Made by a program: the position numbers and the translations under genes. Below are positions 4,149-55,659 of a DNA stretch of 64,000 bases, one piece after another. Source of the DNA: Lytechinus pictus (Eukaryota). Location of the stretch: contig NC_087245.1 of NCBI RefSeq assembly GCF_037042905.1, positions 29,452,001 to 29,516,000 on the forward strand, read 5' to 3'. Position 1 is the first letter of the stretch; each line of letters begins with the position of its first letter. Below the pieces are notes generated by a model. The model worked only from the letters and a program-made list of their open reading frames with translations. It was not told where the DNA came from and did no database searches.

Positions 4149-4172
4149 CATGAAGCTATTAATAGCTCCATG
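4149..4172. mobile_element. 24-bp P-like micro-palindrome (possible excision footprint)
   Basis: catgaagctatt|aatagctccatg (one mismatch), flanked by ctgagac / gtaagac (5/7 match). Shares the CATGGAGCTA terminus with 28162-28181. Confidence 0.5.
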
Positions 4173-4673
4173 GTAAGACCAAACGGGCTGCCTTTATTGT
4201 TGATTAGTTTATAATTACAAGAAAACACATTGTGTAAGATTCTAGTTGTAAAGCAACCCAGAAACGACATCCCAAAATCCTTTCAAAATGACTTGCTGCA
4301 TGAAGTTTCGAAAACCGGTCATGTGATTAAAATTAGTCACGGTCTACTCCCGATAATCCTGTCTCCATGGGCTGTCGGTTCAATGGTCCATGTGAGAATT
4401 CAAATCATAATACGTAAACTAATATATCCGTGTCTTACACGCGCACGCGCGCACACACACACACGCTCACTCGCACGCACTTGAGTAAACGGTGAACATA
4501 CATGTACGTACTCACAAGCACACATCGCATTCGGTGTGCATGCCACTGCAACTGTGCGTTTGAAGTTATGTTTGAAACTTTGCATCAATTATATAGATAA
4601 GAACAGCAGAACACGATACATACGTGCTTCATATGAGCTGGTGTAAAGCAATCCATCATTTGGCAGTGTGGAG

Positions 4674-4892
4674 CAGGGGGCAGCGCCAGGGTAATTAGGC
4701 GCGGGGGAGGGGGGCAAAATGGCATATTTTTCAATTAAATTACATGGTTAATTTACAGTTACAGAACATATACTCTCTCTTCGTAATGCGCTTCTTTTTT
4801 TAACCTCTCATCCTTTTTCTTCCTATTTTCCTTCTTTTTCTCTTTTTCACTACTTGGAAAAGCATAGCCCCCCCCCCCCATCGCCGCTCCTG
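4674..4892. mobile_element. Degraded hAT-like MITE
   Basis: Termini cagggggcagcg ... cgccgctcctg, with poly-G/poly-C subterminal runs. Flanks gtgtggag / gtgaggag. Confidence 0.4.
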
Positions 4893-5129
4893 TGAGGAGC
4901 ATAAATAGGGAACCATAATTTAGAATACTTTCACCCAGATGACATAAACAAATCATGAACAATAATGCGATTCATCCCTGCACCTGACTCAAAGTATGAT
5001 CCATTTAAATTTGCTTGAATAGTAAAGGGATTGAATAAGTGATGTAGCGAGGGCAATATCTAGGACTGAATAACACCTTGTGCTACCCAGAGTATTACAT
5101 ATCTATTCATTTATTTGAGCTCTCTTGCT

Positions 5130-6130
5130 GAACTTGAATATATTCACCTGGGAGTTTCCCGTTGACCTACTCTTAGTCAAAAGTTCATATCCAAGTTTTA
5201 CAAATGATGTTACAGTGAACATCTAACGCAGAAAGCAAGATACGATTTTTGTTCAGTTTTCCCCTTTTTAATGCTGTGGTGGATTTTCTCAACCTTTCTC
5301 CTGTTATTAATCTTATCTTATAAGGCCAAATATCCATATTCGGTTGCACATGGGAAATCTCGTTAACCTATTGTCAGTAAAATGTTGGTAATTTTTTTAC
5401 AAAAACATTACAGTTAGTTTATATCTAATGAAGAAAGCATGATATATTGATTTCAGTTGTTGTGGGTTTTTTTCGTAACCTTTCTCATTATATTTTATTT
5501 TATTAGTCTGAATGTTCATATTCCGTTACACTAAGGCGTATCCCGTTAACTTATTGATGGTAAAATTTCCACGTTTTAAACGTAATGCTTTTACAAAGAA
5601 AGATTACAGTGAGTTTATATCTAATGAAGAAAACAAGATACAATTCTTTCCGTTTCCCTTATTAATGCTGTGATTTTTCTCAACCTTTCTCCTGATATTT
5701 TATTCTATTGGTCTGAATATCCATATTCCGTTGACCTATTGATGGTAGGATTTCCATGCTCTTCACGTATAGCTTTTATAAAGAAGCATTACAGTGAGTT
5801 TATATCTAATGACGAAAGCAAGATGCATTATTTTCCTTTCTTAATGCTGTCTTGAGTTTTCTAAACCTTTCTCCTCATATGCAGTTTATTTTATTGGTCT
5901 AAATATCCATAGTTGGTTGCACCTGGAAGCAACCCGTTGACATTTCTATGGTAAAATTTCCATCGAAAGCTTATTCAAAGAAACATTACAGTTAGTTTAC
6001 ATCTAATGAAGAAAGCGTGATACATTTCTTACAGTTATCAATTCTTAATGCTGAGGGGAGGGAGGTCTTAACCTTACTCCCGATTATTATTCATTTTTTG
6101 GTGTGAAATATCCATATTTATTCCATTGTT
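5130..6130. repeat. Diverged tandem array, ~5 units of ~195 bp
   Basis: Motif acagt(g/t)agtttatatctaatgaagaaagca recurs near 5212, 5409, 5606, 5791 and 5988, with shared aacctttctc and tatccatatt blocks. Confidence 0.8.
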
Positions 6131-6154
6131 AGGTCTACACCATTTGCATGTTAA

Positions 6155-9840: not shown

Positions 9841-11574
9841 CATTGGAGTGTTTCATCAAATATCTAGTCAGTAATCTGTTTTTCTCACACAAAGTTGCTC
9901 TCAGTAAATCAGGAGTGAGGTTTTCAGTAGCTTAAAGTCTCACTGACAAGACGTGGAATAAATTATTTCATTTCATTCATTATTTCATTTATTGAACCCA
10001 ATGGAAGAACAGAGCTCTTCTCCTTCACAGCTCTGATGGGTCATCAATTTATTTCATTTTCTTAATGTTTTATAACTAATCATTATGTTATACTGTGCTT
10101 TTATGAATTTGGAAATAATATAACAAACAAACGAAAAGTATCATTCATTTAGGTTTTTTTTTTAATGTACATACAAGTCAATAACAAGCTGTAGAGTGAA
10201 CGATTTTAATAAAAATAATAATAATAGTACAGTTCTTAATACGCATAACACTTACAGGTCTCTATGCGTGAAGAAAGCGGGAAATGTGGTTAGAATTGTA
10301 AATTTAGAAATTGACATCAAATAATCATACATAACACTAAAGAATATTAAACATGGATTAATTTTTATTTTATAGTATATAATGCTCTTAAGTGGTATAA
10401 GTCAAGTGCTTTAAACAGCTTCACCACGTCACTTCGACATTGTCTATATACTACTGATTTTATTCTGTGTGGTCCCTTTGTTGCTTCAAAAAATGCACAA
10501 CATCCATGACGCATTTGGCTTTAGCAATAGAAAGTCTTTGATACATAACAAAAACAAGCGGATGTTAGGATAAACTGGCCATAAATATGAAAACGTAATA
10601 CCGCGTCATGCTGTACGAAATAGTATAACATGAACACTAAATTTAAATAGAAAAAAAAGCAAAGCTATTTACGATGAAATAGAAGATAATATCTCATTTT
10701 CATCCACAAAGACACCCACATACACTCAAATACCCTGACGCTTTATGAAAGGCTAACCTCTTTGGAGAACACCCTGTAGAAAAGGAGCACACATTGGTGA
10801 AACCCCTGTATCTATTTCTCTTTACTGTGCTCGCGGGGCCGATGACATTAGCGCGAAATGAGAGAAATTTCGAAGTCAATCGTCACGACGTGGGATGAGC
10901 AAACACAACAGGTGATAAAGAGGCACGCAAGTTGGCGTTTAAAGAGGAAGATCATTTATATGTACGTCATAGAGGAGATGAGTCGGACTCGCAATGAAAC
11001 CTCTAACAAAAAGGTAGGTTCACTGTTACGAATGTTCAAGCCAGATTGTAATTCGCTTCGCAATAAATTGCACGGTTGCCAGCAAAAAGTGATCAATTCA
11101 ATCAATTCAAACAAGAGTCTTAAGGGAAATATTCAGTTAATAAGAGACATAAGACAAGAGGATAGCAACTTATTATGAGAACTACGAAATTTTGTTAGGA
11201 TGTTCAGGAAGAATTTAAGGGTATTTAATAAAACAATCTTGTGTTTCTAATGTTAAAACAGAGTAACTTTAACACTGCACATTGACAAATAAGACAATCA
11301 TTATAACCTCTGCTATGCAAGTATAATCGCTTTATCTACTGTGATAGACAAAAATGAGAGAATTAATTTGAATTACCGTGAAATAAATGATTTATTTAAA
11401 TATCATTTCACTTTGACAGAATAAAAGGTCAAACAATTCTACGTGAAGGTGCAAAGGTACATATTTATCCAAAGAATGCTAAAATGCACCTTATGAAATT
11501 GTTAAGGTACTTTGAAGGGTGCAATAGAGTTGGAATTTTTAAAAACTGCGAATCAGCCCCTTCCTTAAAGAGTA

Positions 11575-11980
11575 TTGGGGCGATTCTATACGTGTCGTAC
11601 GGGACATTTTGTCAACAATTTCTAGTCTCTTAGCTGATTGCTTGAGCAATGAAAAATTATTGTTGATCAATAATAAAATTATAGTGGGTAGTCATGTGAA
11701 AAACTGATTACCAACAAAAAATATTTGATTATGGCTGGATTACGGACGAAAATGTTGTGTGTCGTACGGGACTCAGAAATGTCCCGTACGACACGCAACA
11801 TTTTCACCTCTAATTCACCCATGGACAGCATATTTTTGTTGGTTGTCAATTTTTCATATGTCTACCCAGTAGTACTCTATTATTACCACAAAACAAATTG
11901 AAGTTCTTTGTTTGTTTGGACAATAGATTGAAAAATGCTGCGAAAATAGGTGATTTTTCTAGCATGGAATCGCCAATTGT
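11575..11980. mobile_element. Unclassified foldback MITE
   Basis: Termini attggggcgattc / gaatcgccaat. Central hairpin aaaatgttgtgtgtcgtacgggac-tcagaaat-gtcccgtacgacacgcaacatttt. Symmetry extends outward. Confidence 0.65.
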
Positions 11981-12962
11981 TAATCTAGACATTGCAGGAT
12001 GCGAAATGTTTCTCTTTGCATAACGTATGGTAATAATGGGTTTTCTGTTTAAAACATTCATCATGTTTATACAAATTTTACGTTACTGTTAAATTTTCTT
12101 TTTCTTCTTATGAATAATTTCAACTAATCAAAGACATGTTCAGAAAACATACTAAACTTTAAACTTTCGATTGATTCAAGGTCTTAAGATATGTGCAGAA
12201 TAAATCATGATTTCCGTCTTCATGTTCGTGTGGAATACTGGACCAACACGCGCCTTTAAAAGATTTTTAGCGACGAGAGGGAAAATGGATGACCGTAAGA
12301 GCCACCGCGTAAAGGCTTTTAAAATGAAATAGAAGACTACAAATCCCCGCTGAATACAGACTAAGCACCAATTACGCCCCATTGTTTTCTAGTAATCTCT
12401 ACTCTTTTTCATCATAATGCACTCCCTATCAATTTCAATTTTTCTCCACCTCCCGCCTACGTATCAAGATGAGTGGCTAAACAGTAGGGAGACTTATCCC
12501 CGGGGCCAAAATAAATAAAATCGAAATAAGAAGACAGACAGCCAGACTGACATAAGATGAGATGAAAGAAACCCTGTAGAGAACATTACAAGGTCATAGG
12601 TATTACGCAAAAGGTACATGAGGAATGCGCGGAAGGTTAAAAGACTTGCCATGGTGAGGGCGCTGCGTTTTTGTTGCCTAATTTTAAGGAAGTCGAGCAT
12701 TCCTCACAAATATGTTTTATACACTGACATGCAACGAAATACAGTATGAGAAAAATAATAAAATCCAAGGTTTTTTTTATGATTTGTTGTTTCCTTTCCA
12801 CAATGCTACTACCTTCATGGTCACCATGGTTAGGTTCATAATTAAGTTTTTTCTGTGATGTTGTTTTATTTATTCTAATCCGAATGCAAACCATTTAAAA
12901 TGTTTAAGGAACCATGTTGTCTGTATATTTACACACTCAAACACCCCCCACACACACACCAG

Positions 12963-13115
12963 GGGCCCGTTGCATAAAACTTTTTACCTGAGAAAACTCA
13001 GGTTGTTTTTACCGGAGTTTTTGCCCTGTGTTAAAGTCAATGGCAGAAATCAGACTAACCTTAGTTTTCAATTTTTACCAGTTTTCTCAGGTAAAAGGTT
13101 TTATGCAACAGGCCC
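12963..13115. mobile_element. PIF/Harbinger-like MITE
   Basis: cag|gggcccgttgcataaaac ... gttttatgcaacaggccc|cag. 3-bp TSD CAG. Confidence 0.85.
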
Positions 13116-13889
13116 CAGTATTTACATTCAACGGTTTTTCATTTGGATGGACTGGTGAAATCACTGAATCAGACTTTATCTTTGAAAATCGATAGAATAA
13201 ACGAAAATGTAAGACTAAATCGCGGACTATAACATGCTCAAAGAATCTCAATTAGACAAATTTTTAGATGATTACAGTTGGATTCTTCCAAATTGTACAT
13301 GTATTCTCAACCTAATTAATCATATCAAATTAAATGCAAGTTCTTAGAATTGTCCATAAAATAATGATATAATCCTTGGTGAGATATATTTATTTGAATG
13401 TGAATTCAAGGCAATTCAGGTCAAATCCTAAACGAGCGTAATCTTCCTGGTACATTTCACGACCGAAAACCCCAATCGAAATATTCAATATTTCGGAACA
13501 ATGCACTTCATAATACCATGGGTTGGGGAAAATATTCTGATCACGAATTACAAGGTATTTTCCTTTCAAAGACCGATATCATTTTGTCTGCCGCTGGGTG
13601 AAGATCAAGGCTTCATTATATTTTACCCAATCAAGAGGATTTAGTAGTAAGAAATTGGGTTCCATACATGCAAGATATGAAGGTAGTATCCGGATCGACC
13701 AGTAAAATTGATGCATGGAAGGGAATTGGGAAACTCTTGTATGTGTATACAAAGGATGGAGAATGGCGATGCATGTTTGTTTATGGAAAATGAGACATCA
13801 AGCAAAAAGTAACCAATAGCTTTATAAATATTTTCCCCCAAAAGAAAATAAATTCTATTTTCATATGAGGGAATATGAATTTGGATAAA

Positions 13890-14451
13890 TGAGTACAACA
13901 GGCTAATAATAATGTTTGAATAGACAGAATAAAATTAATCCAGGAAATGCTAAAATGTCATCAAAATCTTTTGAAAAATAATGAGGCTATTGTATTCAAA
14001 AATAGAAAGAATCTTTGAAAACAGCTATATATGCATGCCATCATTAGATGCAAGAGATGGGCTGATTATTTATCATGTCCTCATTTATTTTATACTCCTA
14101 TGGCTTTTATGTCATATTTTCTTATGTAAGCGTTAAAGCATGTCTCTCATGTAACCAAATACTTTTTCAGCAATGATAATCTTTCACAATTTATTGATAA
14201 GTCGATCCTATCTTGACATTCTTAGAAGAAAAACATCATGAAATAAAATACAAGAGAAAAGGGGGAAATATGATATTATTAGTTATTATATGCGTAGTAA
14301 TGTGAATGAATATGCATAGAACTATTTCAACTAAATGATGCAAATGTCATAAATCTGTTATTTTTTCCCACTTTTGTTGAATTTGTCAGAGTTCTGTTTG
14401 TCTCATTTTACTTAATCTCGTTAATACAATTTTTCAGCATGGAATACCCCT
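13890..14451. mobile_element. Kolobok-like non-autonomous element, left end degraded
   Basis: Ends tggaatacccct|ttaa. Body resembles 8713-9255. Confidence 0.5.
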
Positions 14452-15151
14452 TTAATAAATGTTAACAAGAAAATATTAAGCAAAGCAAAGCTTTTCTTCA
14501 AGAACACTCGAAATGCCTTCTATACTAGATGTAATGAATGGGAAATTACACTTTAAACATGTTAAAAGATCCGTATCTTCACCTCTTTGACCTTGTCTCT
14601 TCGGGATTCTCACCGTTGTCAAGTTTCCTTAAAAGCATATGTTTTTAAAGGTTTGGTGAGTGACATTGGAGCTCTTTCACTCTATTTTCTTTCATGGTAG
14701 ACAAGATGGAGATAAAATTGAAAAGGGTGGAGAAACTGAAAGGTTTTTGGACATTTTATCTTTTAATTACGCAGTATTATTAGAGATACGCATTGTGTCT
14801 TGTCCTCGCTAAGGGGGAGAAAAAAAACATTCAACATGTTCAAGCAATGATTGAAGGTTCCTCACGTTCATGAAAAACAATTCAAAGGTATGCGGTTTCT
14901 TTTTTGTGTGTAAAAAAACCCGGAAGAAACAGAAAATAGAAACCGGCAGCGCATCTTACCAATCGTAATAAATCATAATTATCAGTAAGTGACAATAAAA
15001 TAAACTTCTTAAATCGCAATCGAGTACCCGAGATTACAGAGGTGAAAGTGACTTAATCAAATGCATAGTTTGCTCCAGAAGGAGCTATAATGCACCCCTT
15101 ACCACTCAAAGAAGAGTGTGGGAGTTTTTACTACTGTGGTTTTCTTTAAAC

Positions 15152-15305
15152 CAGGTAGGTGTTACATAAAGCTGTTCGTAAGTTAAACAGGTTAAAAACA
15201 ATTATTGTAAAGAACGACTGGCAATCCTTTCTGACGCGTTGAATAATCACCAATGAACATGTATTGATGAATATTATTTACCACAAGAAAGGATCACCAG
15301 TCACT
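15152..15305. mobile_element. Truncated Harbinger-like MITE
   Basis: cataaagctgttcgtaagttaa, aagaacgactgg and aagaaaggatcaccagtc are shared with 29451-29630. Confidence 0.55.
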
Positions 15306-16289
15306 GTGATCTGAACCCATTCGGAATTCTCTTTTTTTCCAGAAAGGATGATGGAGTCACACAAGGAGACAAGTCCTCGTATACCGCAAGTCACAAAGAA
15401 TGGATAAGTGGAATTCTAGCTAGGGCAGATATCTGTTTTCCCCTCTGCAAATAGAAGCATTTTCGGTCAAAACAGCGAAAGGATGAGGTCTCAAAAAGAC
15501 TCTCGGTGTGGGCTGGAGGAGTGAAATGTGCTTCACGTCTTATACCTACACTTTCTATTGATATCTATCTATGACGGTTACTGCTCCTTATATATACTAC
15601 CCATCCTTCTCTTCTTACCTCTTTCTTTTTTTCCTTCATCAATTCTTCTTTCTTTTTCAAACCTATGCGTCATCTTTATCAAACGCCACCCCCTATCTCA
15701 ATCTATTTTTTTGTTTTTCTATCTATCTATCTTTCATTCTTCCTCCCTCTGTCTCACCCCACCCTTGTCTGTCTTTTCACCTTCATCACATTTTTTTTTC
15801 TTCGTAGAAACTCATGAGTGTAATCCATAGCATGCGTGTTATCTAAACCTTCGTCTTTCTTATCATGTGATCATAGATCCTTTCATTTTGGGAATTTCCC
15901 TTCCCATTGCATGATTATTCTATATTGCGGTATCGTGTAATTATGTTATTGAATTATAAACTGAAATAAATTTATATCAGTCATTGAGTTAAAGATAACA
16001 CATGTCTCTTCCTTCATTCATAAATTCTGAATGGACGAACGTTGAATCTTAAGTGTGGGGTAAGATAGGACTTAAGTAGGGAAAGTTGTGAGTTTAGTGA
16101 TAGGTATCTATGAGCCTGGCTTTATAGTAGTCCCCTCCATACCCAATCTGTTATGTAATCTGCCTATTGTACATTACTACTGTTTGATCAACTTCAATGC
16201 TTTATGTAATGTTTTATAATGCATACTATGTTACTTGAATTATATTAGTTTGTTGGATATGGAAATATATGAAATGAAATGAAATACAG

Positions 16290-16502
16290 TGATAGTGTGG
16301 GTGGGTGTGATAGTGAGGGCGTGTGTATTGTTCAAGGATGGGTGTGTGCGTGTGTGCGTACACGGCTGTGAGGGTGTGAGTTTGTGAGGGTGTGTGGGTG
16401 TGAGAGTGACGGTGTAAGCAGCTGTGTCTGTGGGGAGTGAGTGTATGTGTAAATGTTGGTGGGCGTGTGGGTGGGACGTGTGTGTGTGTGTGTTGTGTGT
16501 CT
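16290..16502. repeat. GT-rich low-complexity tract
   Basis: Imperfect (GT)n/(GTGG)n. Confidence 0.8.
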
Positions 16503-16735
16503 GAACAACTGTCTACCTTTACCATGTTTACCAATCCGAAATGTTCATGATGTTCATGTTAAGGCCACCGCACATCTTACGAATGGTCTGCGACCCGGTT
16601 TTGATGCTAATATTGAGACATGGAATATGTTTCTGTGTAATGTCCTAGATAATTTTCATTACGTGGTATATGCACCTTAAACATTTTCTGTCATTGATTT
16701 CTGAATCATGTAGCTCTCCTCCCCATCTCTTTCTA

Positions 16736-18137
16736 CAGTGCGTCCCAAAAAAAACTATACACTTTTGAAATGGCTGCCAAATAAAAAATATATCACTTTG
16801 GGGGAAAATACTTATATATACTTATACATAATATATAAAGTCAACTTTCAAATGACACCAACAAGTTGGAAATTTATTCACGCTTGAGTGAACATTGCCC
16901 ACTTAAACCATGGTATTAAAATGACTCTGGGCAGGAATTAGCCTTCCCATTTCTATCGGTTTTTTTTTGGAACTTGCTAAGTTGAGGGTTTTGTGATGAA
17001 TTAATTATCAATTGTGATCAGTTTGTTGTTTGAGAAAATTTCATGAGTTATTAAATTAAAATTCATGAAAAGAGTGGTCATGAATTGCAATTTTAGTGCA
17101 GCATTTTGACTTTATCATGTGGATCTCAGGAATGTTTTTTAGACCTCAGCAGTGTGTTCGTAAGAGTCAGAGTAATGCGATGGTACATGTTACAAGCAAG
17201 AGGGCGAGATATGGTAAGACTTGGTTAAAACGGAATTCCTCTTCTTTGTGTCCTTTTACAAATTACAAGTCACATGGACCCCCCCCCTCCTCCACCTCCA
17301 TTTCCCCGGCTCTCTCTCTCTCTCTCTCTGTCTGTCTCACTTCCTGGATTGTAGCCTATTCAAAACTTGGCAAGTGATCGGTGGCTGATGGTCAGTTTTT
17401 TTTTATTGAATGACTTCCAACAAATTGACTGATTATGATGATTCGTGAAATAATTTATTCAATACACGAAATGTTTGATTGATCACATTGCACATTGAAT
17501 GAGTTGATTTATTGATAAATTGTTTATTAAATGATTGATAGGTAAAAGTTGATGCTCCAATTCAGAATTTATCATTACATCAACATTCTGCTCTGGACTT
17601 CATGCGTACATGTAATGGCAATCAGTCTCTCAACGGTATGGGGGTGGGAGAGAGGGAGGGGGCTACATGTTCTCTTGACCCTTATTCCATCAACCGACTT
17701 CTCCAACTTAACATGCTTAAGTCCTATCTCACCCCCTATTCTCCCGACTGCCATGAACACATTGCTGAGATCCACATGATAAAGTTAAAATGCTGCCCAA
17801 AAAAAGTGTATTTTGTGTTCACTCCTGCATTAAAGTTCAATTTAGTGCTGGTCACGATTGATCATTAATTTATCACAACACCCTTAACTTTGCAAGTTCC
17901 AAAGGAGCCTGTCAAAAACTGACGGAAATTGGAAGGCTAATTCCGGCCCAGCCCAATTTTCATACCCTTTGTTTCAGTGGGCAGTGCTCGCTCAAGCATG
18001 AATATTTTTCCAACTTTTTTGTGTCAGTTGAAAGTTGACCTTATTGGCTTCCATATATGTAGGTGTTTTCCCCCAAAGTGATATATTTTTTATTTGGCAG
18101 CCATTTCAAAAGTGTATAGTTTTTCTGGGACGCACTG
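16736..18137. mobile_element. Tc1/mariner-like non-autonomous element with long TIRs
   Basis: ta|cagtgcgtcccaaaaaaaactatacacttttgaaatggctgccaaataaaaaatatatcactttggggg ... gggacgcactg|ta. TA TSD. Inverted similarity runs ~200 bp. No transposase ORF. Confidence 0.9.
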
Positions 18138-19068: not shown

Positions 19069-19235
19069 TACCTCAGTCACATTTGCTCTACGGTGAACGT
19101 ACGGCGAGTCGAGAACATCCGTTTTAACATTTTGTGTATACCAGCTACATAATGTGGGTGGTTTGAATATAAATGAATAAAACGGCCGTTTTCGACTCGC
19201 CGTACGGCCGCCGTTGAGCAAATATGACTGAGGTA
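19069..19235. mobile_element. PIF/Harbinger-like MITE
   Basis: taa|tacctcagtcacatttgctc ... gagcaaatatgactgaggta|taa. TSD TAA. Related copy at 58233-58410. Confidence 0.85.
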
Positions 19236-27518: not shown

Positions 27519-27598
27519 TAGTGTCCCTTTCCCCTTAAAAAAATATAAGAAATCAGCTAAAATCCTACTATTTGGCAGCTCTGCGAGTAGGATTGAAG

Positions 27599-27618
27599 CA
27601 TGGAGCTATAGCTCCATA
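27599..27618. mobile_element. 20-bp P-like micro-palindrome with 7-bp TSD (duplicated copy)
   Basis: attgaag|catggagctatagctccata|attgaag. Confidence 0.7.
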
Positions 27619-28161
27619 ATTGAAGGGTGTGGTGTACACGTTGGGTGGATATTACATACGCCTACCGAAATTGATTTAAATGCCAAGGTGTTGTTGTTTG
27701 TGGTCGTTTCATCAAATTTGTCTTCTTTATAATCCTCCAAGCATTTCAGGATGTTTGTATGTTTTCCTTCCATTTCCTTCCACGTTTCCTTAAGACTACA
27801 CGATTAAACAAAGACACAACTTTTCCGTTGAAAGACAATAATAATCCTAACCCCTTCCTTTAGTTTTGATGTTTTCGGACAGGATGGTGGTATTTGTTTT
27901 ATCATTTGTGGGCGGATCGATTTCGGGTGTGTCAATGACGAGTTTTCGTTCCATGACGCGCAACGGATTCAAGAACATAGACAATGTATAGTCAAAATGC
28001 CATTCATGGCAATGAACAACGATGTGGTCTTTGTCGAAAATGGGTCAATCAAAACGGCAGTCTCGTCCTGGACTCTGCCTGTAGTGTCCCTTTCCCCTTA
28101 AAAAATTATAAGAAATTAGCTAAAATCCTACTTATTGGCAGCTCTGCAAGTAGGATTGAAG

Positions 28162-39931: not shown

Positions 39932-41168
39932 TTTCGTTCAGACGAAGGCTGTTTTGGTCGGAGTAAGATCGGAGGAAAGGGCGGAGTAGAGCCCGTGTGG
40001 ACAGGGTTACTCCGACCAACTCGTTCAGACGTACGGGTTCGTAGTCGGAGTAGAATTCTATTGAGCATGGATTGATATTTATCTTACCAAGACCACGCAT
40101 GCAGGGGGACGGAGTAACTTTCGGAAATTGTTTCAGGCTCTCGCCAGCTATTAAATCCTTGGTATTCTGTTCTCCCCAATACGCCCCGCATTTCTTTCCA
40201 TGACCAATTTTCATCTAGATTTTCTTAGAGTATTACACAACCGAGCTTTCTACTTTGAACTGCACCTCACTCATGTACTACGCAAAATGTCAACATGGCA
40301 CTTTGGTCCCCGAATTTTTTTACGAGAGGTCGTAAGGAGATACTCCGAGTTCTGTCCGCACGGGCAATTTACTCCGACCGGCTAGTCGTGATAGCGAGAT
40401 ACTCCTGGAAAGAACCAGGAGTATCTTGGTCGGAGGAAGGTCGCGGAGTAACTCTGTCCCCCGGGGGGGCCACTTCCATTCACGAGTGGATACCATGCGC
40501 GACCATGGGATCTCGAAAAGCACCCTAAACACGTAATTTCCATATTCTGAAAATGCACCCCTTAACAAGTATTGGCGTGTGAAACCCTACCCTTAACAAG
40601 TATTGGAAACAAAACGATACTCTTGGCAAATATTCCCTGAAATGAACCCCTAAACAAGTACAGGAATGTTTTATTGTTACGGGTCCTTCGGTCGTCGGCT
40701 TTACCTTATTTGGTTTAGTACAACCCCACCTTCTACACCTCGCTCAAATCGGACTCTAAACACGAAGTGTTGGGGCAAAAATGGACATCCTTTATAAAAC
40801 ATTTTAATTTTGTTTTATCATTCCCGCAAATTCGACCCTAAACACGTAATTTTCCTAGCGAAATAGACACCCTTTTTTCATTATTTTTGTGTTTTTGATA
40901 CCCTTTTCACGTTACGTACGTAACGTGCCCTATCGTGAAAAGGACATCCTTTTTACGTGTTTTTTTGGTCGCGCATGGTATCCACTCGTCAATGTAAGTG
41001 GCCCCCCCGGGCTCTGTCCTGACGGGCAGTAGTACTCCGACCCTTCCTCCGACCTTACTCCCACCGAAACGGCCTACTCGGAGTCGTGATAAGAGAAATA
41101 TCTTTGGAATTTTTATCCATGCTTCATAGAATTTTATTCCGCCTAAGAACCCAAGTCTGAACGAGGCT
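39932..41168. mobile_element. Harbinger-like non-autonomous element rich in ACTCCG/CGGAGT motifs, carrying a nested insertion
   Basis: tcgttcagac at the left end and gtctgaacgaggct at the right end. Inverted blocks ttggtcggagtaagatcggaggaaagggcggagta / tactccgacccttcctccgaccttactcc. Confidence 0.6.
40460..41011. mobile_element. 552-bp non-autonomous DNA transposon with CCCGGGGGGG termini and an 8-bp TSD
   Basis: ctctgtcc|cccgggggggccactt...gagtggataccatgcgcgacca ... tggtcgcgcatggtatccactc...aagtggcccccccggg|ctctgtcc. Confidence 0.9.
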
Positions 41169-41750: not shown

Positions 41751-44700
41751 ATATGCTTTTCACACTGCACTTTTTGTCCTAAATTGGTGGGGCTAAGGGG
41801 GGGGTCTTATAGCCCCACCAATTTCCCGGGGTTAAGCTTAGCCCACTTCGTTTTAACACTACGTTTTAGCAAAGTGGGCTAGCACGGTAAATAGTACGGT
41901 ACTATCTGGCCCTGCAAAAAAGCAGAGTTAGCCGGCTTATTGTGGTGCTAGCACTACAATTGCGGTGCTAAGAGATGCAGTGTGAAACGAAACAGGGCTA
42001 AGCAAAAGCGGGGCTAAGCATTAGCCAATCACAGAAGTCGAAATTGCACGTTAATCGCGCTCTGTATGGTAAAATCATTAGACGGGTCAATATACGACCA
42101 AAAATAGCCTTACCCGGAACAAATTGCAACAAATGATTTTTCAACGGTATTTTGTACTATTTGACCTCAGGAATAACATACTAAAAATCTACCAAAATCC
42201 GCATCCGGGAAAGTGGTTATTTTCAAGATGGCGTCCAAAATGGCCGCCATTCACTGAAAATGGATACAACTGACACATTATCCACCCTAGAATACTATTT
42301 CGGTTCATATTCCATGGTCTGGGGTACAAACATTGATTTAGGCTAGGATGCATTATGAGCCCTCCAGTGTACCAGGCAAATCCAAGATGGCGCCCAAAAT
42401 GGCTGCCGTAGGCTGAAAATCCACAATTAATCTAAATTAGTTTTTTATTTAATGGTTTTAAAGGTGAAATAGTACATTGAAACAAGTTACAAGGACAGCC
42501 AGTGGTCGAGTGTGTCCAAAAATCCAAGAAGGCTTCCAAAAAATGAGTTTAAAATGGCTGTTGATAATTAAAATGGACATAGTTCATTTTATATCCGCCT
42601 GGGACATAATGATTTTGGTGTCTAGACCATGATTTCAATGGTCAAATAAGACATTGGGATAAGTTACAAGGACAGTCAGTGGAGTAGTATGTTCAAAAAT
42701 CCAAGATGGCTTCCAAAAATGGAGTCGAAAATTGCTGTTGCTACTTAAAAAAACCCGACATAGTTTGCTCAATGTCCAGAAATATGATTTTTGTGTCTAT
42801 ACCATGGTTAAATGGGTCAAATAATACATTGGGGCAAGTTACAAGGAAAGTCAGTGGTCTGGTATGTGCAAAAATCCTAGATGGATTCTAAAAATTGATT
42901 CTGAAACGGCTGCTAATACTTAAAGCGGACAAAGCTCATTTCATTTTGGCCTGGATATGTGATTTTGATGTATAAACCACTGGTTTCAAGGGTCAAATAA
43001 TATATTAGGATAAGTTACAAGGACAGTCAATGCTATGGTATGTCCAAAAATCGAAGATGGCGTCCAAAAAATGGTATTAGAAATATGCTGCTGATACTTA
43101 AAGCGGATCAAGCTCCTTTCATATCGGCCTGGAAATGTGATTTTGGTGTCTAAACCACTAGTTTCAAGGATCAATTAATACGTTAGGGCAAGTTACAAGG
43201 AAAGTCAGTGGCCTGGTCGGTCAAAAAATCTAAGTTGGCTTCCAAAAATTGATTCTAAATTGACTGCTGCTACTTGAAGCGGACATAGCTTATTTCATAT
43301 CGGCATGGGAGATGCAATTTTGGTATCTAAACCACTGGTTTAAGGGCCAAAATAATACATTAAGACAGGTTTTAAGGCCAGTCAGTGGTCTGGTATGACA
43401 AAAAATCCAATATGGCTTCCAAAACTTGATTCTTAAATGGCTGTTGATACTTTAAAGTGGCATAGCTCATTTTCAATCCGCTGTGAGATATGATTTCGGT
43501 GTCTAAACTATGGTTTCAAGGGTCAAATTATATAAATGGACAAGACAATGGCAGTCAGTGGTCTAGTATGTCAAAAATTACAAGATGGCTTCCAAAAATG
43601 GAGTAAAAATATGTCTGATGTTACTTATAAAAGGACATAGTTTGTTTAATATCTGTCTGGGGAATATGAGTTTGGTGTTAAAAGCATTGTTTAGAAGGGT
43701 CAAGTAATACACTAGGGTAAGTTACAAGACCAGTCAGTTGTCTGTTTAAAAAAAAAAATCCAAGATTACTTCAAAAAAATGGGGTGTAAATTGACTGTTG
43801 CTCTTTAAAAGTATGCATAGTTTATTATAAATACACCTTGGAGGTATGATTTTGCTGTCTATACTAGAGTTTACAGGGTCAAGCAATACCTTGGGTTAAG
43901 TTGAAAGGACAGTCAGGTGTCAGGTATGTCCAAAAATCAAAGATGGATTTAAAAATAGGGGTCTTAAATGACTGCTGTTACTTAAAAGTGGATGTAGAAC
44001 ATTATAAATACACCATGGGGATATTATTTTGGTGTCTACACTAGGGTTTCAAGGGCCAAACAATACTTTGGGACTGGTTACCATGATATGCAGCTATCCA
44101 TTTTGCCTTAAAATCCAAGTTGGCTTAAAAAATGGGTTCTAAAGTGACTACTGTTACATAAAATATCTACCTGTTAGAAATAATCTTGGTGCCTACACTT
44201 AAATGCATGGGGACAAGTTATCATACTGTTTAATGAGTTGGTAACAGCACCCATTTTGATGAAATTTTAGAATCCATCATGGATTATTTGACAAAATGGA
44301 GTACTAACCATCCTGTTTACTTGTCTGAATGTATCATTTGACCCTTCATACCACAATTTGGACACCAACATTATTTCTTGCAGATGAATATTGTAGAACT
44401 CTGACCACTATTGAATGATATGAGTCGTTTTAGATTCCTTTAAAAACCCTCTTGTGTTTTAGGCGAACTGGACAACTGCATATCAATGTAACCAGTCCAA
44501 ACGTATTATTTTAACCATGAAACCATAGTGTGGACACCGAAATCATATCTCCTAGGTGGATTTTAAATGAACTATGTCCATTTTAAAAGTAACAGCAGTC
44601 ATTTAGACTCCGATTTTTGGAAGCCATCTTGTATTTTCGACATACTGGACCACTGACTGTCCTTGTAACTAATTTTCTGCCTTTTGAAACCATGATATAG

Positions 44701-45782
44701 GCAACAAAATCATATGCCCTTGACGAATAAAACATGAACTATGTCCATTTTTAAATACCATCGCGGCTAATTGATACTATTTTTTAAGCCACCGTGGACT
44801 TTTGGACATACTTGACCACCAATCGTTCTTGTAACTTATCCCAATTTATTATTTGACCCATTCAACCATGGTATAGGCACAAAAAATCATATTCCCGAAT
44901 ATTGAACAAACTTTGTTGGTTTTTTTTCAAGTAGCAACAGCATTTTTTACTCCATTTTTGGAAGCCATCTTGGATTTTTGAACATACTGGACCACTGATT
45001 GTCCTTGTAACTTGTCCCAATGTATTATTTGACAATTGAAACCATGGTCTAGACACCAAAATCATATCTCTCAGGTTGATGTGATATGAGCTATGTCCAT
45101 TTTAAGGATTAACAGCCATTTTAAACTCAATTTTTGGAAGCCATCTTGAATTTTTGGACACACCAGACCACTGGCTGTCCTTGTAACTTGTCCCGACGTA
45201 CTACTTCATCATTAAAACAATCGGATGGAAACCAAATTAAAGCCACTTAAGTAAGTAATAGATGAATTGTGGAGTTTTTAGACTACGGCATCCATTTTGG
45301 GCGCCATCTTGGATTTTCCTGGTACCCTGGAGTGCTAATATTCACTCTAACTTGTATAAATAAATTCTTTTACCCATTGGACCATGGAATATGAACCCAA
45401 ATATGATTCTAGGGTGGATAATGAGTGAGTTATATCAATTTTTAGTGAATGGCGGCCATCTTGGATGACATCTTAAAAATAACCACTTTCCCGGATGCGG
45501 ATTTTGGTAGATTTTTAGTATGTTATTCCTGAGGTCAAATAGTACAAAATACCGTTGAAAAATCATTTGTTGCAATTTGTTCCGGGTCAAACCATATATT
45601 GACCCGTCTACATCAATATTTATGAGCTGTGTGATTGCCCGGGGTTAAGGCATTAACCCCGGCTAAGCAATAGTACGGGGTTAAGAAAGACAGTGTGAAT
45701 CGAAAAAAGATAGTATGGGGTTAAGGATAGTCCGGGGTTAAGGATAGTACGGGGTTAAGGAAATGCAATGTGAAAAGCATAT
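41751..45782. mobile_element. Harbinger-like MITE (~500 bp) split by the foldback insertion
   Basis: Termini atatgcttttcacactgca / tgcaatgtgaaaagcatat. ggggttaag/gggctaag motifs on both sides of the insertion. TSD not evident. Confidence 0.7.
42079..45610. mobile_element. 3.5-kb non-autonomous foldback element, Academ-like termini
   Basis: cat|tagacgggtcaatata ... tatattgacccgtcta|cat (TAG/CTA ends, 3-bp TSD). ~110 bp of subterminal arm is identical. Interior is inverted arrays of ~176-bp units. Confidence 0.85.
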
Positions 45783-48846: not shown

Positions 48847-49940
48847 GAGCCTGTTCAGACCGGCAGAGATAGCGCGATCTAGCGCGCGCTAGATCGCGCT
48901 ATCTCTGCGGTGTGGAAGGTACAACGTCGTTTCGGTCCGCCCAACAGCGAGCCACGGCGAGCCAAAACGGCGTGCCACTGGAGCACCTCTTGGGGGTGGT
49001 CCACGAGAGATAGCGCGGTCTAGCGCGCGCTAGATCGCGCTATCTCTGCCGGTGTGAACCCGAGCTACGATAGCACGCCGGAAGTCATCTACACGCGGGG
49101 AATTTTATACTCATTCTATTTTGGTGCGATCTGAATCTGAATCGGTACAACTCAACACTCCTAATTTTATGGAGTAAAACGCGTCGGAACATCGTGAAAA
49201 TAGAAATATAGTAAGTAATGCGTCATGGCAACAAGACCTCTCAAAAAAGGGGGTGCTACGATAGACCGCGCTATCTCACTGCGGTGTGAATCCGGCGAAT
49301 GCCAATGGGCGGACCGTGGATCGCGCTACGATAGCGCGATCCACGGTCCGCCCACGGTCCCCCCTTGCGGTGTGAACAGCCTCGATCGAGCGCCCTTGAG
49401 GCTGTTCACACCGCAAGGGGGGACCGTGGGCGGACCGTGGATCGCGCTATCGTAGCGCGATCCACGGTCCGCCCATTGGCATTCGCCGGATTCACACCGC
49501 AGTGAGATAGCGCGGTCTATCGTAGCACCCCCTTTTTTGAGAGGTCCTGTTGCCATGACGCGTGACGTCATGAGGTCAGAGCGGTCAAAGATTTCGCGCG
49601 CTATTACGAACCCGTACTAGTTAGTTGAGAGCTCGATATCGCTGTGCCTATTACAGTATGCTAGCCGGCCTACGTTTATTTCATGGCGTTGTAGAACGAT
49701 GACTTCCGGCGTGCTATCGTAGCTCGGGTTCACACCGGCAGAGATAGCGCGATCTAGCGCGCGCTAGACCGCGCTATCTCTCGTGGACCACCCCCAAGAG
49801 GTGCTCCAGTGGCACGCCGTTTTGGCTCGCCGTGGCTCGCTGTTGGGCGGACCGAAACGACGTTGTACCTTCCACACCGCAGAGATAGCGCGATCTAGCG
49901 CGCGCTAGATCGCGCTATCTCTGCCGGTCTGAACAGGCTC
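48847..49940. mobile_element. 1094-bp nested-palindrome element, Harbinger-like
   Basis: aag|gagcctgttcagaccggcag ... ctgccggtctgaacaggctc|aag (3-bp TSD). Outer arms 48847-49089 / 49698-49940, inner arms 49220-49383 / 49398-49561. Repeated ttcacaccg and gatagcgcg motifs. Confidence 0.9.
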
Positions 49941-49984
49941 AAGATGTAGGCGCACCCGACAGAGGGGCGCTCTTACGTAACAAG

Positions 49985-50460
49985 GAAAGAGAGGAGGGAA
50001 GGAGGCGAGGAAATAAAGGAAAAGGGATCAGAGAATAAACGAAAGAAAAAGAAAAACGGGAAAGCAGAAACAAGAGAGAAAGAGAAGCATTTGGAAAAAA
50101 GCAAACATAAGAGGAACAGAGAGTAGAATAAACAGAAAATTGATAAAATAGAGAAAGAGGAGAGGGGGAGAGAGGGAGATAGAGAAGAGAGAGAGAGAGA
50201 TAGAAGAGAGAGAGGTGGGAGACACAGAGAAGGGGTGAAATAGAAATAGAAATAGAAAAACAAAAATAATAAAAGAAAAGAGAGACAAATATAGGGGCGG
50301 AGTGGGAGAAAGAAAATAGAAGAAAAGGTAAGAATATACCAGCTAAGGAAGAGAAAGAGAGAGAGAGACCGAATGAGAAAAAGGGAAAGGGAGAGAGCGA
50401 GAGGAAGATTATTAGAAAGAAAAGATGACAACAACACACCAGAAAACAAAGAAGCAAGGA
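49985..50460. repeat. GA-rich low-complexity tract
   Basis: Purine-rich on the plus strand. Lies just downstream of the Penelope ORF on the minus strand. Confidence 0.85.
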
Positions 50461-50463
50461 AAA

Positions 50464-51150
50464 TTGACAGGCGGTGGATCATACGTTCTTCCCAGATTTT
50501 CCTCTCCTCATCTGCATGTAGCACCAGAACATCTCACGATGCCACATATTTTGAAGTTGCTGATGGAGTGTCCTGGAAGATTGAAATGATGAGCAACTGG
50601 AAGTCCTGTGGTGTGACGTCGGAGTGATCGTAGATGTTCGTTGGTGCGATCGGCCATCCTCCGTTTAGTCTCACCATGGACCTACTACTCTGTCAGAGTA
50701 GTAGGTCCATGGTCTCACCGACATATAGCATGTCACATGCGGTGCACACTATGACATATCAAGTTGGTGGTAGTTCATGTTAAATGATCCCGAACAATCC
50801 AGGTAGACTTAGGTCCCTTGATACTGGTATCTTGCTTATTCTTGCAGTATGAAGTTGCATGTATTACATCTGCTCCTGCCGCATCTCACGGTCCCGTGAT
50901 TCTCCTCAGTAGTTGTAGATGTTAATTTGGAATGTACCAGCAGATTGCGGAGGCTCTTGTCTTTCTTATACGCGACCACTGGAGGATTCTTGAATATCTC
51001 CCGGTTATTCTCATCCTCCTTGAGAATGCCCGTGTTATTCATGATGGTTGAGACGATCCTCTCGGTAGACGGATGGTACGTTAGGACCAATGGTACCCGG
51101 TCCATGTTCTCTTGCTGACGTGGTTGCAAAGTGGCCGTGCGACTTAGACT
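50464..51150 (-). pseudogene. Penelope-like ORF remnant: RT-thumb linker, Cys-rich region and GIY-YIG endonuclease
   Basis: RVPLVLTYHP, PPVVAYKKDKSLRNLLVHSKL and CGRSRCNTC. After frameshifts, VIVCTACDMLYVGET. Removing the 37-bp insertion and one TSD copy gives KRRMADRTNEHLRS...PVAHHFNLPGHS...RKIWEERMIHRL. Confidence 0.9.
50675..50711. mobile_element. 37-bp perfect P-like micro-palindrome with 7-bp TSD
   Basis: gtctcac|catggacctactactctg-t-cagagtagtaggtccatg|gtctcac. Its removal restores the YVGETKRR frame. Confidence 0.9.
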
Positions 51151-51162
51151 GGAAGCTATATA

Positions 51163-52147
51163 CAGTGCGTATCAAAAAAAAAGTTTACATTTTGAAAAAG
51201 CCCTAGGAATTAAAAAATATGCAACATGTGGGTAATTTTTTCACATGTTATCTTGGGTTTGGGTCTCATCTATCTAATGCAAGTTAAAGTTTTGACAGAA
51301 TGTTACACTTGAGTGAGTACTGTCCATTTTTGTAAAGCTCGCAGAAATCTGTTTGCGCAGAAATGCTTGTTTTCACGCTGTGTAAAGGGGAAAGGGCGAA
51401 ATCAAACTTACCCTGCGAAACATTTCTCATCCATTTCCCTTGCACTTTTAGTCAATTGAAATTAAACGAATACATTCAAGCATTTTGTAACAATTTTGCC
51501 ACCCAAATTGAAATTTCAACACTTAGTAAGCACAACCTTTACCCTTTTTGTGCCAGCTGGATCTGAGGACTTAACTGAATCTGAACAAAAGTTTATATCA
51601 GACATCTCCAGCATTTTTCACTAAGTTTGTATCATTTAAAGTGGGTTTACATTTCATTTTTCATTTAATACTTGTTTCTCCACACTTTTCCCCAAGCTTG
51701 ACAATGATTAACAAAATGAAAATGAAGCCTAAGCCATTTTATGTAAGTCACATCTCAGTGTAAAGCAAACATCGTCACGATAGCCTCGGTGTGTGGGGGA
51801 GTGGGATGAGGCGCAATGCACTCTTCGAAGTTTTTTGGCCAAGGGAACAAGTTTAAAAAGGTAAAAGATATCTTCAAATCAATTTTACTAGCTAAATTCC
51901 TCGTGTTCTTCATGATTAAGGTCTACTTTTATTCGCATAACTATTTCAGAGTTCTGCGCAAATCATTTTTCACTAACTTTTCAAAAGTAAGTGGTGCTCA
52001 TTCAGGCGGAAATATTTTTCGACAGTTATATCGTCATTTGCTTAAGTGGATCTGTACCAATGTTAAATTGTGGAAAAATCTTCAGGATATTACAAATATA
52101 TAATTTTACAGGATTTTTTCTAAATGTAAACATTTTTTTGATACGCA
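51163..52147. mobile_element. Tc1/mariner-like non-autonomous element (~985 bp)
   Basis: ta|cagtgcgtatcaaaaaaaaagtttacattt ... aaatgtaaacatttttttgatacgca, followed by (TA)n. The final ctg is missing. Same family as 26540-27518. Confidence 0.85.
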
Positions 52148-52228
52148 TATATATATATATGATATTTATATTTATATACTGTGAGAAATTATACATGTAC
52201 AACAGCTTTGGCAACTCTTTTTATCTAA

Positions 52229-52350
52229 ATATGTTGTGAAAGAAATTAATGAAGAGAACACTTTTTCCAAAGGGTAGGTAGGTCTGGGGAACCTTGACTT
52301 AGGCTACGCCTACCATTGTTCTCTTCATTAATTTCTTTCACAGCATATAT
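52229..52350 (+). mobile_element. SINE-like 3' fragment preceded by an inverted copy of its own 3' tip
   Basis: atatgttgtgaaagaaattaatgaagagaaca (52229-52260) is inverted relative to tgttctcttcattaatttctttcacagcatat (52317-52348). Confidence 0.6.
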
Positions 52351-52879
52351 ATTTATATATATTACTAGAAGAAAAGGGGTGTCCATTATGAACCTCTCAC
52401 CACTACACTTTCAAGAGAGAGTAAACAAGAGTGTTAGGTACTGCCATGGAGAATCACACACGGTGAACGGTGATGACTTAGAAAACATTAGTTTGTCCGC
52501 GCTAAATGAAGAAATGCATTAACAACAAAAGCGACCAAATATTATCCCTCATTTCCATGAAATGGTTGAAACGAGGGGCACTAATTATTTCATTTTTATT
52601 TGGACACGGACGTCGCTTGGTGTCGGAGGAAACAGCAGGCATACGAATTGGGTACGACTGGTAATTGTTGGTGTTTCTCGCCAATTTGAAATAGACTCAT
52701 TATCATTTGTTTCGGAGAAACATGGTTAGGAGATCTCTTTTTTCTCTCTCTCTCCTGGAAAATATCCTACTGTACCGATAAATAAAGTGTAGCCAATTAA
52801 AATTAATCACAGAGACACTGGTAATCTCCTTTTTTGTGGGTGCTTCGTTTGCAATAATTCGAGAAAGCTTTTTATTTCA

Positions 52880-52883
<4 letters not shown>

Positions 52884-52937
<54 letters not shown>
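52884..52937. repeat. (CT)n microsatellite
   Basis: Perfect CT run. Confidence 0.95.
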
Positions 52938-52941
<4 letters not shown>

Positions 52942-54123
52942 CGGACATGCTGGATAAAAATTATTATCAAACGTCATTATAATACCTGTGTATGACCCTG
53001 TTCCATCTTTGGAAATTCACATCAAGAAACGAACACAGAATATTATTTTTTTAACCCACAAACGGTGATTTTACAAAATATCGAATAAAAATTTTATCAG
53101 GACTTTGAGAAAACACATTTTTTTATTTTTACAATATTACAATATTTCTGTCTGTAAACGATAAGACCATTACGAACTACTATCATTGATTTTTTTTAAA
53201 TCACCGTCAAAAACGAAACAAGGACATATTCCAAATGCCATAATGAAATAATATACATCATCAAAAGACGGAAGGAAACGCTCATGCGACATTAAATTGG
53301 CGACAAAGTTTCAGTCATTTGACACGACAATTACAAAGGGCGGCAACGGAATTGTATTCCAATTGATTCTTAAACGATTGATTTTTGGAGGGTGATTGAA
53401 GCTCGTTCGTGACAGTTGACGGTCATTGAGAGGCAAAGGACGAATGAAATATATCAATATCTCTAGTTTTTGTTTTGAGCATGCACATCTTGCTTCCATT
53501 ATTATTTAATATTAGTATTAGGTGTTCTATTTACGTTGAAGTTGAGCTTTTTTTTCTTCTCTAATCTTTTTTTTTGGCATTCTGTGTTCACCGATAAAGC
53601 CTTGGAATATGGCGAAGAGATTGTTCGCTATACCGTATCCATTATTGATTAAATTTGAATGGGACATTCTCTGTGTTCGTCCTTTGTTTTTATGAAGGGG
53701 AAACTGAGATGGGATCGATACCAATATCTAAATGATTAATGTCATTCGGGAGGTACATATTTGCATTTTAAGATCAATACAAGCCGCAATAGAAGCGTTG
53801 CTGTTCCAGAAGTTTAAACAATGGAAATTTCATAGAAAGTGATTTAAACATTATGAAATGCAATCATAGTCAAAATGAGGAAAAAATACACAATGCAAAT
53901 TGATTATTATACTGCTTTCATTCATTTTCTGAAAATCTTTCGAAAGTCATCGGTACATTTTAAATTTTATTATCAATTTCAATACGTGCATAGTTCAGAA
54001 TTCATAGATCATAATTTAGATTTAGATTTTTATCCTAATTTTAAAGATGTAAATTGCATTTTTTTTTCTCATGACTTAACGTGCATTTCACTGCTTAGAG
54101 TCTAGAAGTAGAGTTTATAAAAG

Positions 54124-55659
54124 CAGCGGCGTAACAGGGGTCGGTGGCCAGGGGGGGCAAGAGCCAAAAATTTCCCGGTCATATCATGGTATGAACAGGT
54201 GCAATGGTGTAATGAGGCGACTATTTTGAGAAGGCCAGATATTGCGTATCAGGCAGAATTTATCTTTAAAAAAAAGTTGCGAGCGAGCGAAGCGAGCGAG
54301 CAAAAATTTTTGACCTTTTTAATACAAAAATCCAATTTTGTGATAGATTTTGACATGATATCCAGAGAATAATATATTTCACTCTTCTCTCTTTAGATTC
54401 CTTTTTTTGTGGTCTGTACGCCACTGTGAACAGGATTCTGTGCGGCAGTAGCGTGAAGAGTAAAAAAAAAAAACGGAAGGGCGCATTATAACACATGTGC
54501 TAAAAAGCTGCTTTATATAAGTCCCGAGCAAGCGAAGCGAGCGAGAAAAAATCACCTTTTCCTGAGAATCTAACTTTGAGCTATTTTTTATTCAGTAAAT
54601 AAAATCATATCCTACACTTTTCCTTTGCTTTTCTTTCCTCCTTTTTTTGTTGTTCTTGTTTGTAGAACTTTTTGAAGCCATGGCCCAACCAAGGAGATAT
54701 CACAGAGTGATATCTCCTTGGCCCAACCCTTCCATACGCTGTGCTGTGCGGTTGGGGTCCGGGGCGGAGCCCCCGGAACTTCTTGATATCAAAGCCATTT
54801 AAACCTCGCAGATTGCCGCTATTTTAATCAAATCGCGGGCATATACAGAATATAGCTTAATTTTACACAACAAATTTTATTCAACCCAGTTGCGTAATGA
54901 ACCAAATATTTTGAGGGAGCAAAACATTGCAATGTGGGAAAAATTTGTAAAAAGTCGCCAGCGTGCAAAGCGAGCTGGAAAAAATGCCTATTGAAATTAA
55001 ATTCTAATTATGTGATATATTTTTCCATTATATTCAGCAAATAACACCTTTTATTGTTTCCATTCATTTCATTATACGTTGTCTCATATAATTTATTTTC
55101 TTTCCTCTTGGGTGTGGAGCCAAGACCCCCCCCCCCCCGCCTGTCTGCCAGTGATTGAACGGGGGGCGTTATAGAGCCATTTGAAGGTTATAAATGAAGA
55201 GCCCCTACTGCGTGGGGTCTGGGGCAAAGCCCCGGTAGCTTATTTGCATAAAATTTAGCCCCGCATTTAGCAAGCTTAAAGCACAATGTTGTATGCAGTC
55301 CATTAGCTTTTGACTAATTACATTCTACCTTCGTTTCCCGCAATTGTTTGCCATTTTGTCATCTTTTGATTTATTTCCCACTGTGCTATTGCATTACATA
55401 GGCCTATTTTGGAATGATTTGCTCTTTCTCAGATGTTCTTCTTTCGTACATTTTCCCGCTTTCCTTCCTTTTCCATTTAAAAAAAAGTTTTTTCTTCGTT
55501 TTCTTTTCCCTTTCCTTTTCCTCCTTTCCTTTTCCCCTTTCCTTCCCCTTTCTTTCTCCCTCTTTTTTTTTCTTTTTCCCGTTTTTCTTTTATTTTCCCG
55601 GTGAAATCCGCCAGGGGGGGCAACTTGCCCCCCCTGCCCCCCCGCCTGTTACGCCACTG
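54124..55659. mobile_element. hAT-like non-autonomous element, 1536 bp
   Basis: tataaaag|cagcggcgtaacagg ... cctgttacgccactg|tataaaag. 8-bp TSD. Internal gcgagcgaagcgagc motifs. No transposase ORF. Confidence 0.9.
54690..54720. mobile_element. 31-bp P-like micro-palindrome with 7-bp TSD
   Basis: gcccaac|caaggagatatcac-aga-gtgatatctccttg|gcccaac. Confidence 0.85.

Follow-up and report, generated by a model that had tools for sequence, protein, structure and literature searches.

What leaves a palindrome of 20-37 bp, starting with CA and framed by a short direct repeat, several times in one stretch of an animal genome? We address this question for 64,000 nucleotides of Lytechinus pictus (RefSeq assembly GCF_037042905.1, contig NC_087245.1, positions 29,452,001 to 29,516,000 of the forward strand), here called the window and numbered from its first letter. 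The window is AT-rich and repeat-rich DNA of animal type, with 34-49% GC per 2 kb. A preliminary description of its letters had taken five such palindromes for excision scars of P- or THAP9-like transposons. The scar part of this claim stands, given insertions at two of the sites and relatives that vary in length, contain filler or are one-sided; the P/THAP9 label is one that we infer. The palindromes are very probably scars left by some transposon whose donor cut has a long stagger, and each is probably the footprint of a P-superfamily DNA transposon, of the cut-and-paste type, which inserted there and was later excised in the germ line.

The ends of the palindromes are referred to as families A, B and C. 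Family A is found at site A1 (4149-4172, a 24-bp palindromic remnant; 4142-4179 with flanks), site A2 (27599-27618, a 20-bp remnant with its last base changed; 27592-27625 with flanks) and site A2' (28162-28181, a perfect 20-bp palindrome; 28155-28188 with flanks). Site B is a 37-bp palindrome (50675-50711, arms 18+1+18; 50668-50718 with flanks), and site C is one of 31 bp (54690-54720, arms 14+3+14; 54683-54727 with flanks). A direct check of the letters agrees with the coordinates and arms first given for all five. The 7-bp direct repeats that had been described around each are perfect at A2, A2', B and C, but at A1 only five of the seven positions match. A2 and A2' lie on two 300-bp copies (27516-27815 and 28079-28378, plus strand) that are 97% alike and spaced by 563 bp. 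The tandem duplication proposed as the source of this pair is therefore real, and the four sites with perfect repeats represent three events.

The window was scanned for inserts of 20-60 bp with 10-nt arms (at most one mismatch) between perfect 7-bp direct repeats. The scan returned exactly four matches, at 27599, 28162, 50675 and 54690. In 100 local dinucleotide shuffles, the mean was 0.02 matches per window and the maximum was 1, and a CAWRG-type end appeared in none. The four perfect-repeat palindromes are not due to chance (4 versus 0.02). A relaxed scan of the window for older scars gave zero additional sites. A1 was retained because its end is common to A2' and to the metagenome locus L010, described below; it may be an older or damaged scar of family A.

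Some care is needed in placing the boundary between repeat and insert. At C it can slide (7+31, 9+29 or 11+27 with one mismatch, all 38 bp), and at B the split is likewise not unique, because a terminal C and G extend the repeat. We adopted the 7-bp reading, which is the sole split giving CA ends at every site. In each of the five palindromes one arm or both begin with CATG or CAAG, and the targets in the window match GTNNNAC at 4, 4, 3 and 2 of 4 positions. A further 34-bp palindrome at 40395-40428 (14+6+14, with a CAAG-type right end) was excluded from the sites since it has no flanking direct repeat; it may be a scar with one flank missing, or have no connection with the others.

For sites B and C, the state before insertion can be examined. 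The host of site B is a decayed retroelement fragment with reverse transcriptase (RT) and GIY-YIG similarity on the minus strand (50426-51168), which we take to be Penelope-like; it was delimited by tblastn with the protein P0001, at 83% and 71% identity. The insertion falls inside the GIY-YIG motif of the fragment. The reading frames on either side differ, and removing 44 bp, that is, the palindrome and one repeat, reunites the halves of the motif in frame. P0001, an intact homologue with a length of 394 aa, has 96% identity in the downstream half, and it runs across the insertion position with neither a gap nor extra residues. Its match to the Pfam GIY-YIG family is weak (E 0.0009, below the curated cut-off), and neither half of the site B frame alone has a Pfam match. 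Scars can break reading frames, as at 50675.

Site C lies in a high-copy repeat region (54065-55480, unstranded), where summed contig depth is in the thousands versus 6-139 in the bins to the left. Contigs of runs X2, X6 and X10, three of the four runs compared, jump from 54680 to 54719 and skip exactly 38 bp, which is the 31-bp palindrome plus one 7-bp repeat. Of the words in 49950-55500, runs X1-X10 contain a fraction of 0.11-0.23, and where they overlap the window they depart from it at many places, so they are not taken as the same individual, nor surely as the same species; what the contigs show is an empty state and not allele status. Sites B and C are insertions of a palindrome plus one repeat.

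The different lengths within family A can be related to a single end. A1 and A2' have a terminus in common and keep different lengths, as the preliminary description had it. If both derive from one end, this would be the 14 nt read from 4149, and the same 14 nt recur at the left arm of L010, whose insert is 26 bp long, a third length, between perfect 7-bp repeats. Symmetric joins at the self-complementary words of this 14-nt end are predicted to give 14, 18, 20 and 24 bp, and the lengths observed in the window, 20 and 24 bp, are two of these. Family A is consistent with a single end of 14 nt, which a 2-nt word would join to 20 bp and a 4-nt word to 24 bp. Read from its right arm, C agrees with B at 13 of 18 arm positions, and read from its left at 10, which suggests that C may be an asymmetric 14+18 join of ends related to B. 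To build B from two 17-nt tails, 3 nt of filler would be needed; otherwise one arm was at least 19 nt long. At least three terminal families probably acted in this window. A search for single arms of families A, B and C elsewhere in the window gave none that was convincing.

Joints of this type are known from laboratory flies. Drosophila P transposase cuts 17 nt inside the 31-bp terminal repeats of its element (PMC7776569). Donor joints of the P{wa} element keep both 8-bp copies of the target and up to 17 nt of each end (PMC2895639, Table 1); microhomology, blunt joining and AT-rich filler are all represented among them, and some classes recur 14 times (PMC2895639). Our sites are like these Drosophila melanogaster junctions in retaining the target copies and remnants of both ends with a CATG start (PMC2895639; review, PMC7776569), and in showing the same kinds of join with a few recurrent modal products (PMC2895639). 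They differ in that the P{wa} joints arose in the laboratory from a single element, which has a 17-nt tail and an 8-bp duplication (PMC2895639), whereas here we have natural, inherited copies with at least three ends, duplications of 7 bp (8 and 9 bp in relatives), arms of up to 19 nt and a putative transposase.

The proposed course of events has three steps. The element would first insert at a GTNNNAC-like target with a 7-bp duplication, as shown at B and C and presumably also at A. The transposase would then make one cut at the edge of the element and, on the opposite strand, a second one about 17-20 nt into the terminal repeat (17 nt for Drosophila P), so that both donor ends keep a single-stranded tail of element end. 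Finally, as the anatomy of the junctions suggests, the two identical tails would be cut back and then ligated, whether through short self-complementary words, as blunt ends or with filler. The product would be a palindrome no longer than two tails, with an intact duplication on each side. Such remnants would be inert, since they have no room for subterminal transposase sites.

Relatives of the family A end can be used to examine this proposal. Metagenomes were scanned for the outermost 10 nt at either end of family A with at most 30 nt between them, that is, for inserts of at most 50 bp only. This gave at least 118 loci, and a scan of viral contigs added one, with a single match that has no duplication. 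There are at least 120 matches to the 10-nt ends, two of them at contig edges, leaving 118 that could be scored; counts of relatives, here and below, are among the matches listed. A duplication of 7, 8 or 9 bp (at most two mismatches) flanks 92 of the 118, perfectly in 65, and is absent from 26. Coverage by open reading frames (ORFs) has a median of 0 for 80 of the metagenome loci versus 0.95 for 43 prokaryotic loci found with the same pattern, and among the 77 of 268 ORFs from fetched loci that were searched against Pfam, five match eukaryotic families, including MH1 and TRAF/MATH; the metagenome loci are therefore read as mostly animal DNA.

The same pattern gave 43 matches in prokaryotic genomes, none with a duplication and none with fewer than three mismatches, although more than half of these rows are one conserved site, so that they are less independent than the number implies. 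Among the prokaryotic rows, L123-L165, a 28-bp palindrome with a family A end is found at one conserved site in many Latescibacterota and Gemmatimonadota genomes; it has no duplication and is unrelated, perhaps a hairpin in a conserved locus. That the palindromes in the window are chance events or assembly artefacts is hardly credible. Three metagenome matches would fit such a view, since L037, L066 and L102 sit at the centres of inversions as long as the whole contig or the flanks, have no duplication and are probably misassembled; they were not counted. The shuffles, the empty sites at B and C, the copying of one site by a diverged duplication and the lack of duplications at all 43 prokaryotic matches refute it for A2, B and C; for 4149 it is not fully refuted.

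After merging 16 matches as repeat flanks and allowing at most one mismatch in the duplication, 73 distinct sites remain: 60 with an 8-bp duplication, 11 with 9 bp and two with 7 bp, one of the last being L010. The same first 10-12 nt accompany duplications of all three lengths. Targets of the 8-bp relatives match a mean of 2.07 of 4 GT...AC positions versus 1.0 expected (n=60). Several scars lie in close pairs less than 60 bp apart, each with its own duplication (L049:197-228 and 250-275, L104 and L090), and this suggests repeated local insertion and excision. At locus L047 (154-198), a 45-bp palindrome has a CA end unlike the others and lies between perfect 7-bp repeats of the GT...A type; it is another such family.

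Inserts in the relatives are 20-44 bp long, within the 50-bp limit of the scan. Sites of different length have in common up to 19 nt of arm in the 8-bp class and up to 17 nt in the 9-bp class, and beyond the common prefix the inserts enter the opposite arm or AT-rich filler. Nine long inserts have middles that are 78-100% AT. In L064 the two arms are separated by foreign filler of about 190 bp, and L090 is a one-sided remnant with 16 nt of a single arm between perfect 8-bp repeats. At the relatives, as at the window sites, both copies of the duplication are kept with element ends between them. A ceiling on arm length had been proposed to give the stagger of the transposase. In the relatives, among inserts of at most 50 bp, it would lie at 17 nt (9-bp class) and 19 nt (8-bp class), and it may depend on the length of the parent's terminal repeat; the figure of 17-18 nt does not hold, as B needs at least 19 nt or the 3 nt of filler and relatives keep 19 nt.

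A ceiling of this kind also bears on foldback elements. Long palindromic transposons could have lost their centres by hairpin processing or replication slippage, with no excision at all, and elements with long, perfect arms that might serve as substrates do exist in the window (48847-49940 and 42112-45587). Such a collapse would not be expected to halt once 17-19 nt of arm were left, and the window has no element of intermediate length with these ends, up to 20 kb, although four events are a small sample. We consider collapsed foldback elements very improbable as the source.

Could the palindromes instead be mobile themselves, as true MITEs (miniature inverted-repeat transposable elements) of 20-37 bp, each copy with its own duplication? 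The preliminary description had linked this possibility with one fixed length in many identical copies, and in a related family that is partly what is found: one identical 26-mer occupies 27 of the 60 8-bp sites, and a one-letter variant of it is present at three (L005, L058 and L108), with ends and duplications intact. The recurrence is explained by microhomology, however. A length of 26 bp is the predicted join at the 6-nt self-complementary word of that 8-bp-class end, and the modal sequence occurs at 27 of 38 sites for the end with the word versus 2 of 17 for two ends without it (Fisher p 7e-5, a post hoc contrast that pools assemblies and leaves 18 sites unassigned or mixed); the modal length is absent where the word is absent. 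The one-letter variant also occurs at a length of 23 bp (L109), and its presence at both lengths points to a variant parent.

Nor is the homogeneity of a MITE family seen in length or sequence. The 60 8-bp sites have 29 different sequences and the 11 9-bp sites have 11, among them the asymmetric, filler-bearing and one-sided forms, and family A has lengths of 20, 24 and 26 bp at three sites. Anopheles P-MITEs (PMC1562414) and BuT5 (PMC3698922) are, like our palindromes, non-coding with P-type ends and duplications of 8 or 9 bp, but they are about 200 to 2450 bp long, contain subterminal sequence and are homogeneous within each family, whereas ours are 20-44 bp and heterogeneous. Drosophila P requires internal transposase sites beyond its 31-bp repeat (PMC7776569). 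We therefore regard mobile elements of 20-37 bp as improbable, and continue with excision scars as the preferred explanation.

Terminal repeats of the P superfamily have a CANRG consensus, and the ends found here likewise start with CA, as do those of Drosophila P and Pdre2, which start with CAT; CA...TG ends also fit hAT elements. Duplications of 7, 8 or 9 bp are found here as in the P superfamily, to which they are not exclusive. Within that superfamily, 8 bp is known for P, 7 bp for 1360 and Galileo, and 8 or 9 bp for BuT5 and its P element (PMC3698922). The 7-bp members prefer GTTNAAC or GTANTAC targets, and 1360/Hoppel and Galileo are likened to our elements by their 7-bp duplication and palindromic GT...AC target alone (PMC3276498, PMC4168063). 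Outside insects, the zebrafish Pdre2/THAP9 system is P-like, with a short terminal repeat starting with CA and an 8-bp duplication, and its terminal sequence is different from ours (PMC10983969). Excision by zfTHAP9 in cell assays tended to give flanking deletions (PMC10983969), so not every P-like enzyme can be relied upon to leave a clean scar. A sea cucumber and, at class level, other echinoderms are reported to have THAP9-like genes with a P transposase domain (PMC13228809).

It is unlikely, in our estimate, that the scars come from a different superfamily of DNA transposons, one whose cut likewise falls well within the element's ends. Such an origin would agree with the failure to find a transposase linking the ends to P, with the fit of GT...AC targets to hAT elements (hobo has the similar motif GTNCGNAC), and with the occurrence of one 10-12 nt start beside 7-, 8- and 9-bp duplications. 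All three duplication lengths nevertheless occur within P (PMC3698922). Excision of hAT elements is reported to leave flank sequence derived from hairpins and no element ends (PMC3499496), while the palindromes here do not mirror their flanks and have ends common to unrelated sites. Muta1, a Mutator-like element (MULE), mostly excises precisely, with up to 13 bp of its repeat staying behind only on occasion (PMC5225508), and the long stagger is described as peculiar to P (PMC7776569).

The parent element was sought in several ways. Pairs of the form CA[N]RG...CY[N]TG with duplications were searched in the window up to 20 kb apart. One pair, 10352-16912 (6561 bp), has ends matching at 9 of 10 positions and an AT-rich 8-bp repeat with one mismatch, and was judged to be chance. 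In locus L034, the 18 nt at 1540-1557 are identical to the 8-bp-class end; they form part of a longer repeat, have no partner end and were not accepted as a parent. They may be a captured end or scar, or chance. In viral contigs, the B arm, the B ends and the 19-nt related end each had 0 matches, and the C ends had five, none with a duplication. The 19-nt related end had three single matches in prokaryotic genomes, which were taken as chance.

Several results weigh against excision by a P-type transposase, and they are best considered together. No longer element with these ends was found in the window (up to 20 kb), in 276 kb of fetched loci or in the viral and prokaryotic collections searched; a Pfam search of all 208 of the 208 ORFs selected in the window gave two weak matches to domains of unknown function (DUFs) and no transposase, and no P transposase is among the 77 of 268 ORFs searched from the metagenome loci. 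The preference for GT...AC targets, though present, fails to distinguish P from hAT. The contigs with the empty state at site C may represent paralogous copies of the repeat or belong to a related species, and among the matches listed in the compared runs there is no full-element or scar form. A1 was missed by both the strict and the relaxed scan (five of seven flank positions, one arm mismatch), and families B and C are known from one site each. The evidence across animals concerns the family A end only, mostly with 8- or 9-bp duplications and with several assemblies pooled, and the metagenome scan is blind to variants within the first 10 nt and to inserts longer than 50 bp. A tiny mobile element would give the recurrent 26-mer as well. 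Finally, two inserts of 36 and 38 bp have a 21-nt prefix in common, although in these the excess may be filler copied from the arm.

If P-type scars are indeed what the window contains, they have uses that most excision events do not offer. A DNA transposon that is excised usually leaves few traces to interpret, whereas scars of the P type keep the target duplication and the element ends; they name the family, mark a former insertion and record both the depth of the cut and the germ-line repair of the break. Stagger length and the rules of germ-line end-joining could then be read from genomes alone. The scars would allow stagger to be compared across families without biochemistry, where 17 nt has so far been measured for one insect enzyme, and would give a natural readout of microhomology use. 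Repeat annotators would label them micro-MITEs or overlook them. Four events in 64 kb suggest that scars are common, by extrapolation from one window. Tentatively, and with a little less than even confidence, we propose that the long staggered donor cut, otherwise known from Drosophila P alone, is general among widespread marine-invertebrate transposons that have one terminal word and duplications of 7, 8 or 9 bp, with a length of about 17 to 20 nt that is specific to each family. If the parents are not P elements, they would represent a second superfamily with this chemistry. In the literature covered (without Repbase, most subscription papers and supplements), we found no natural P-type scars in invertebrate genomes, nor these terminal sequences. 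The scar mechanism is known from laboratory flies, and natural, inherited scars of several families are an extension of it rather than a new system.

The window contains other repeats that are described here for completeness. The element at 48847-49940 is 1094 bp long, with 243-nt arms that are 100% complementary, nested short palindromes and AAG at both flanks (a possible 3-bp duplication), and looks young. The one at 42112-45587 is of the foldback type, 3476 bp long, with outer arms of 208 nt (94%) and a 176-177-bp unit that is repeated in inverted arrays. A TA-flanked element of about 1 kb with short inverted ends (51161-52155) adjoins the RT/GIY-YIG fragment at site B, and related stretches are present near 26515-26750 and 27350-27520. 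A minus-strand frame at 19890-20621 resembles the C-terminal part of a long interspersed nuclear element (LINE) reverse transcriptase; it has no Pfam match. Two related hairpin elements of 95-97 bp, at 19104-19200 and 58269-58363, have flanks that contain CGTACG. The word TACATGTA occurs 10 times in the window versus about 2 expected from base composition, by a hand estimate.

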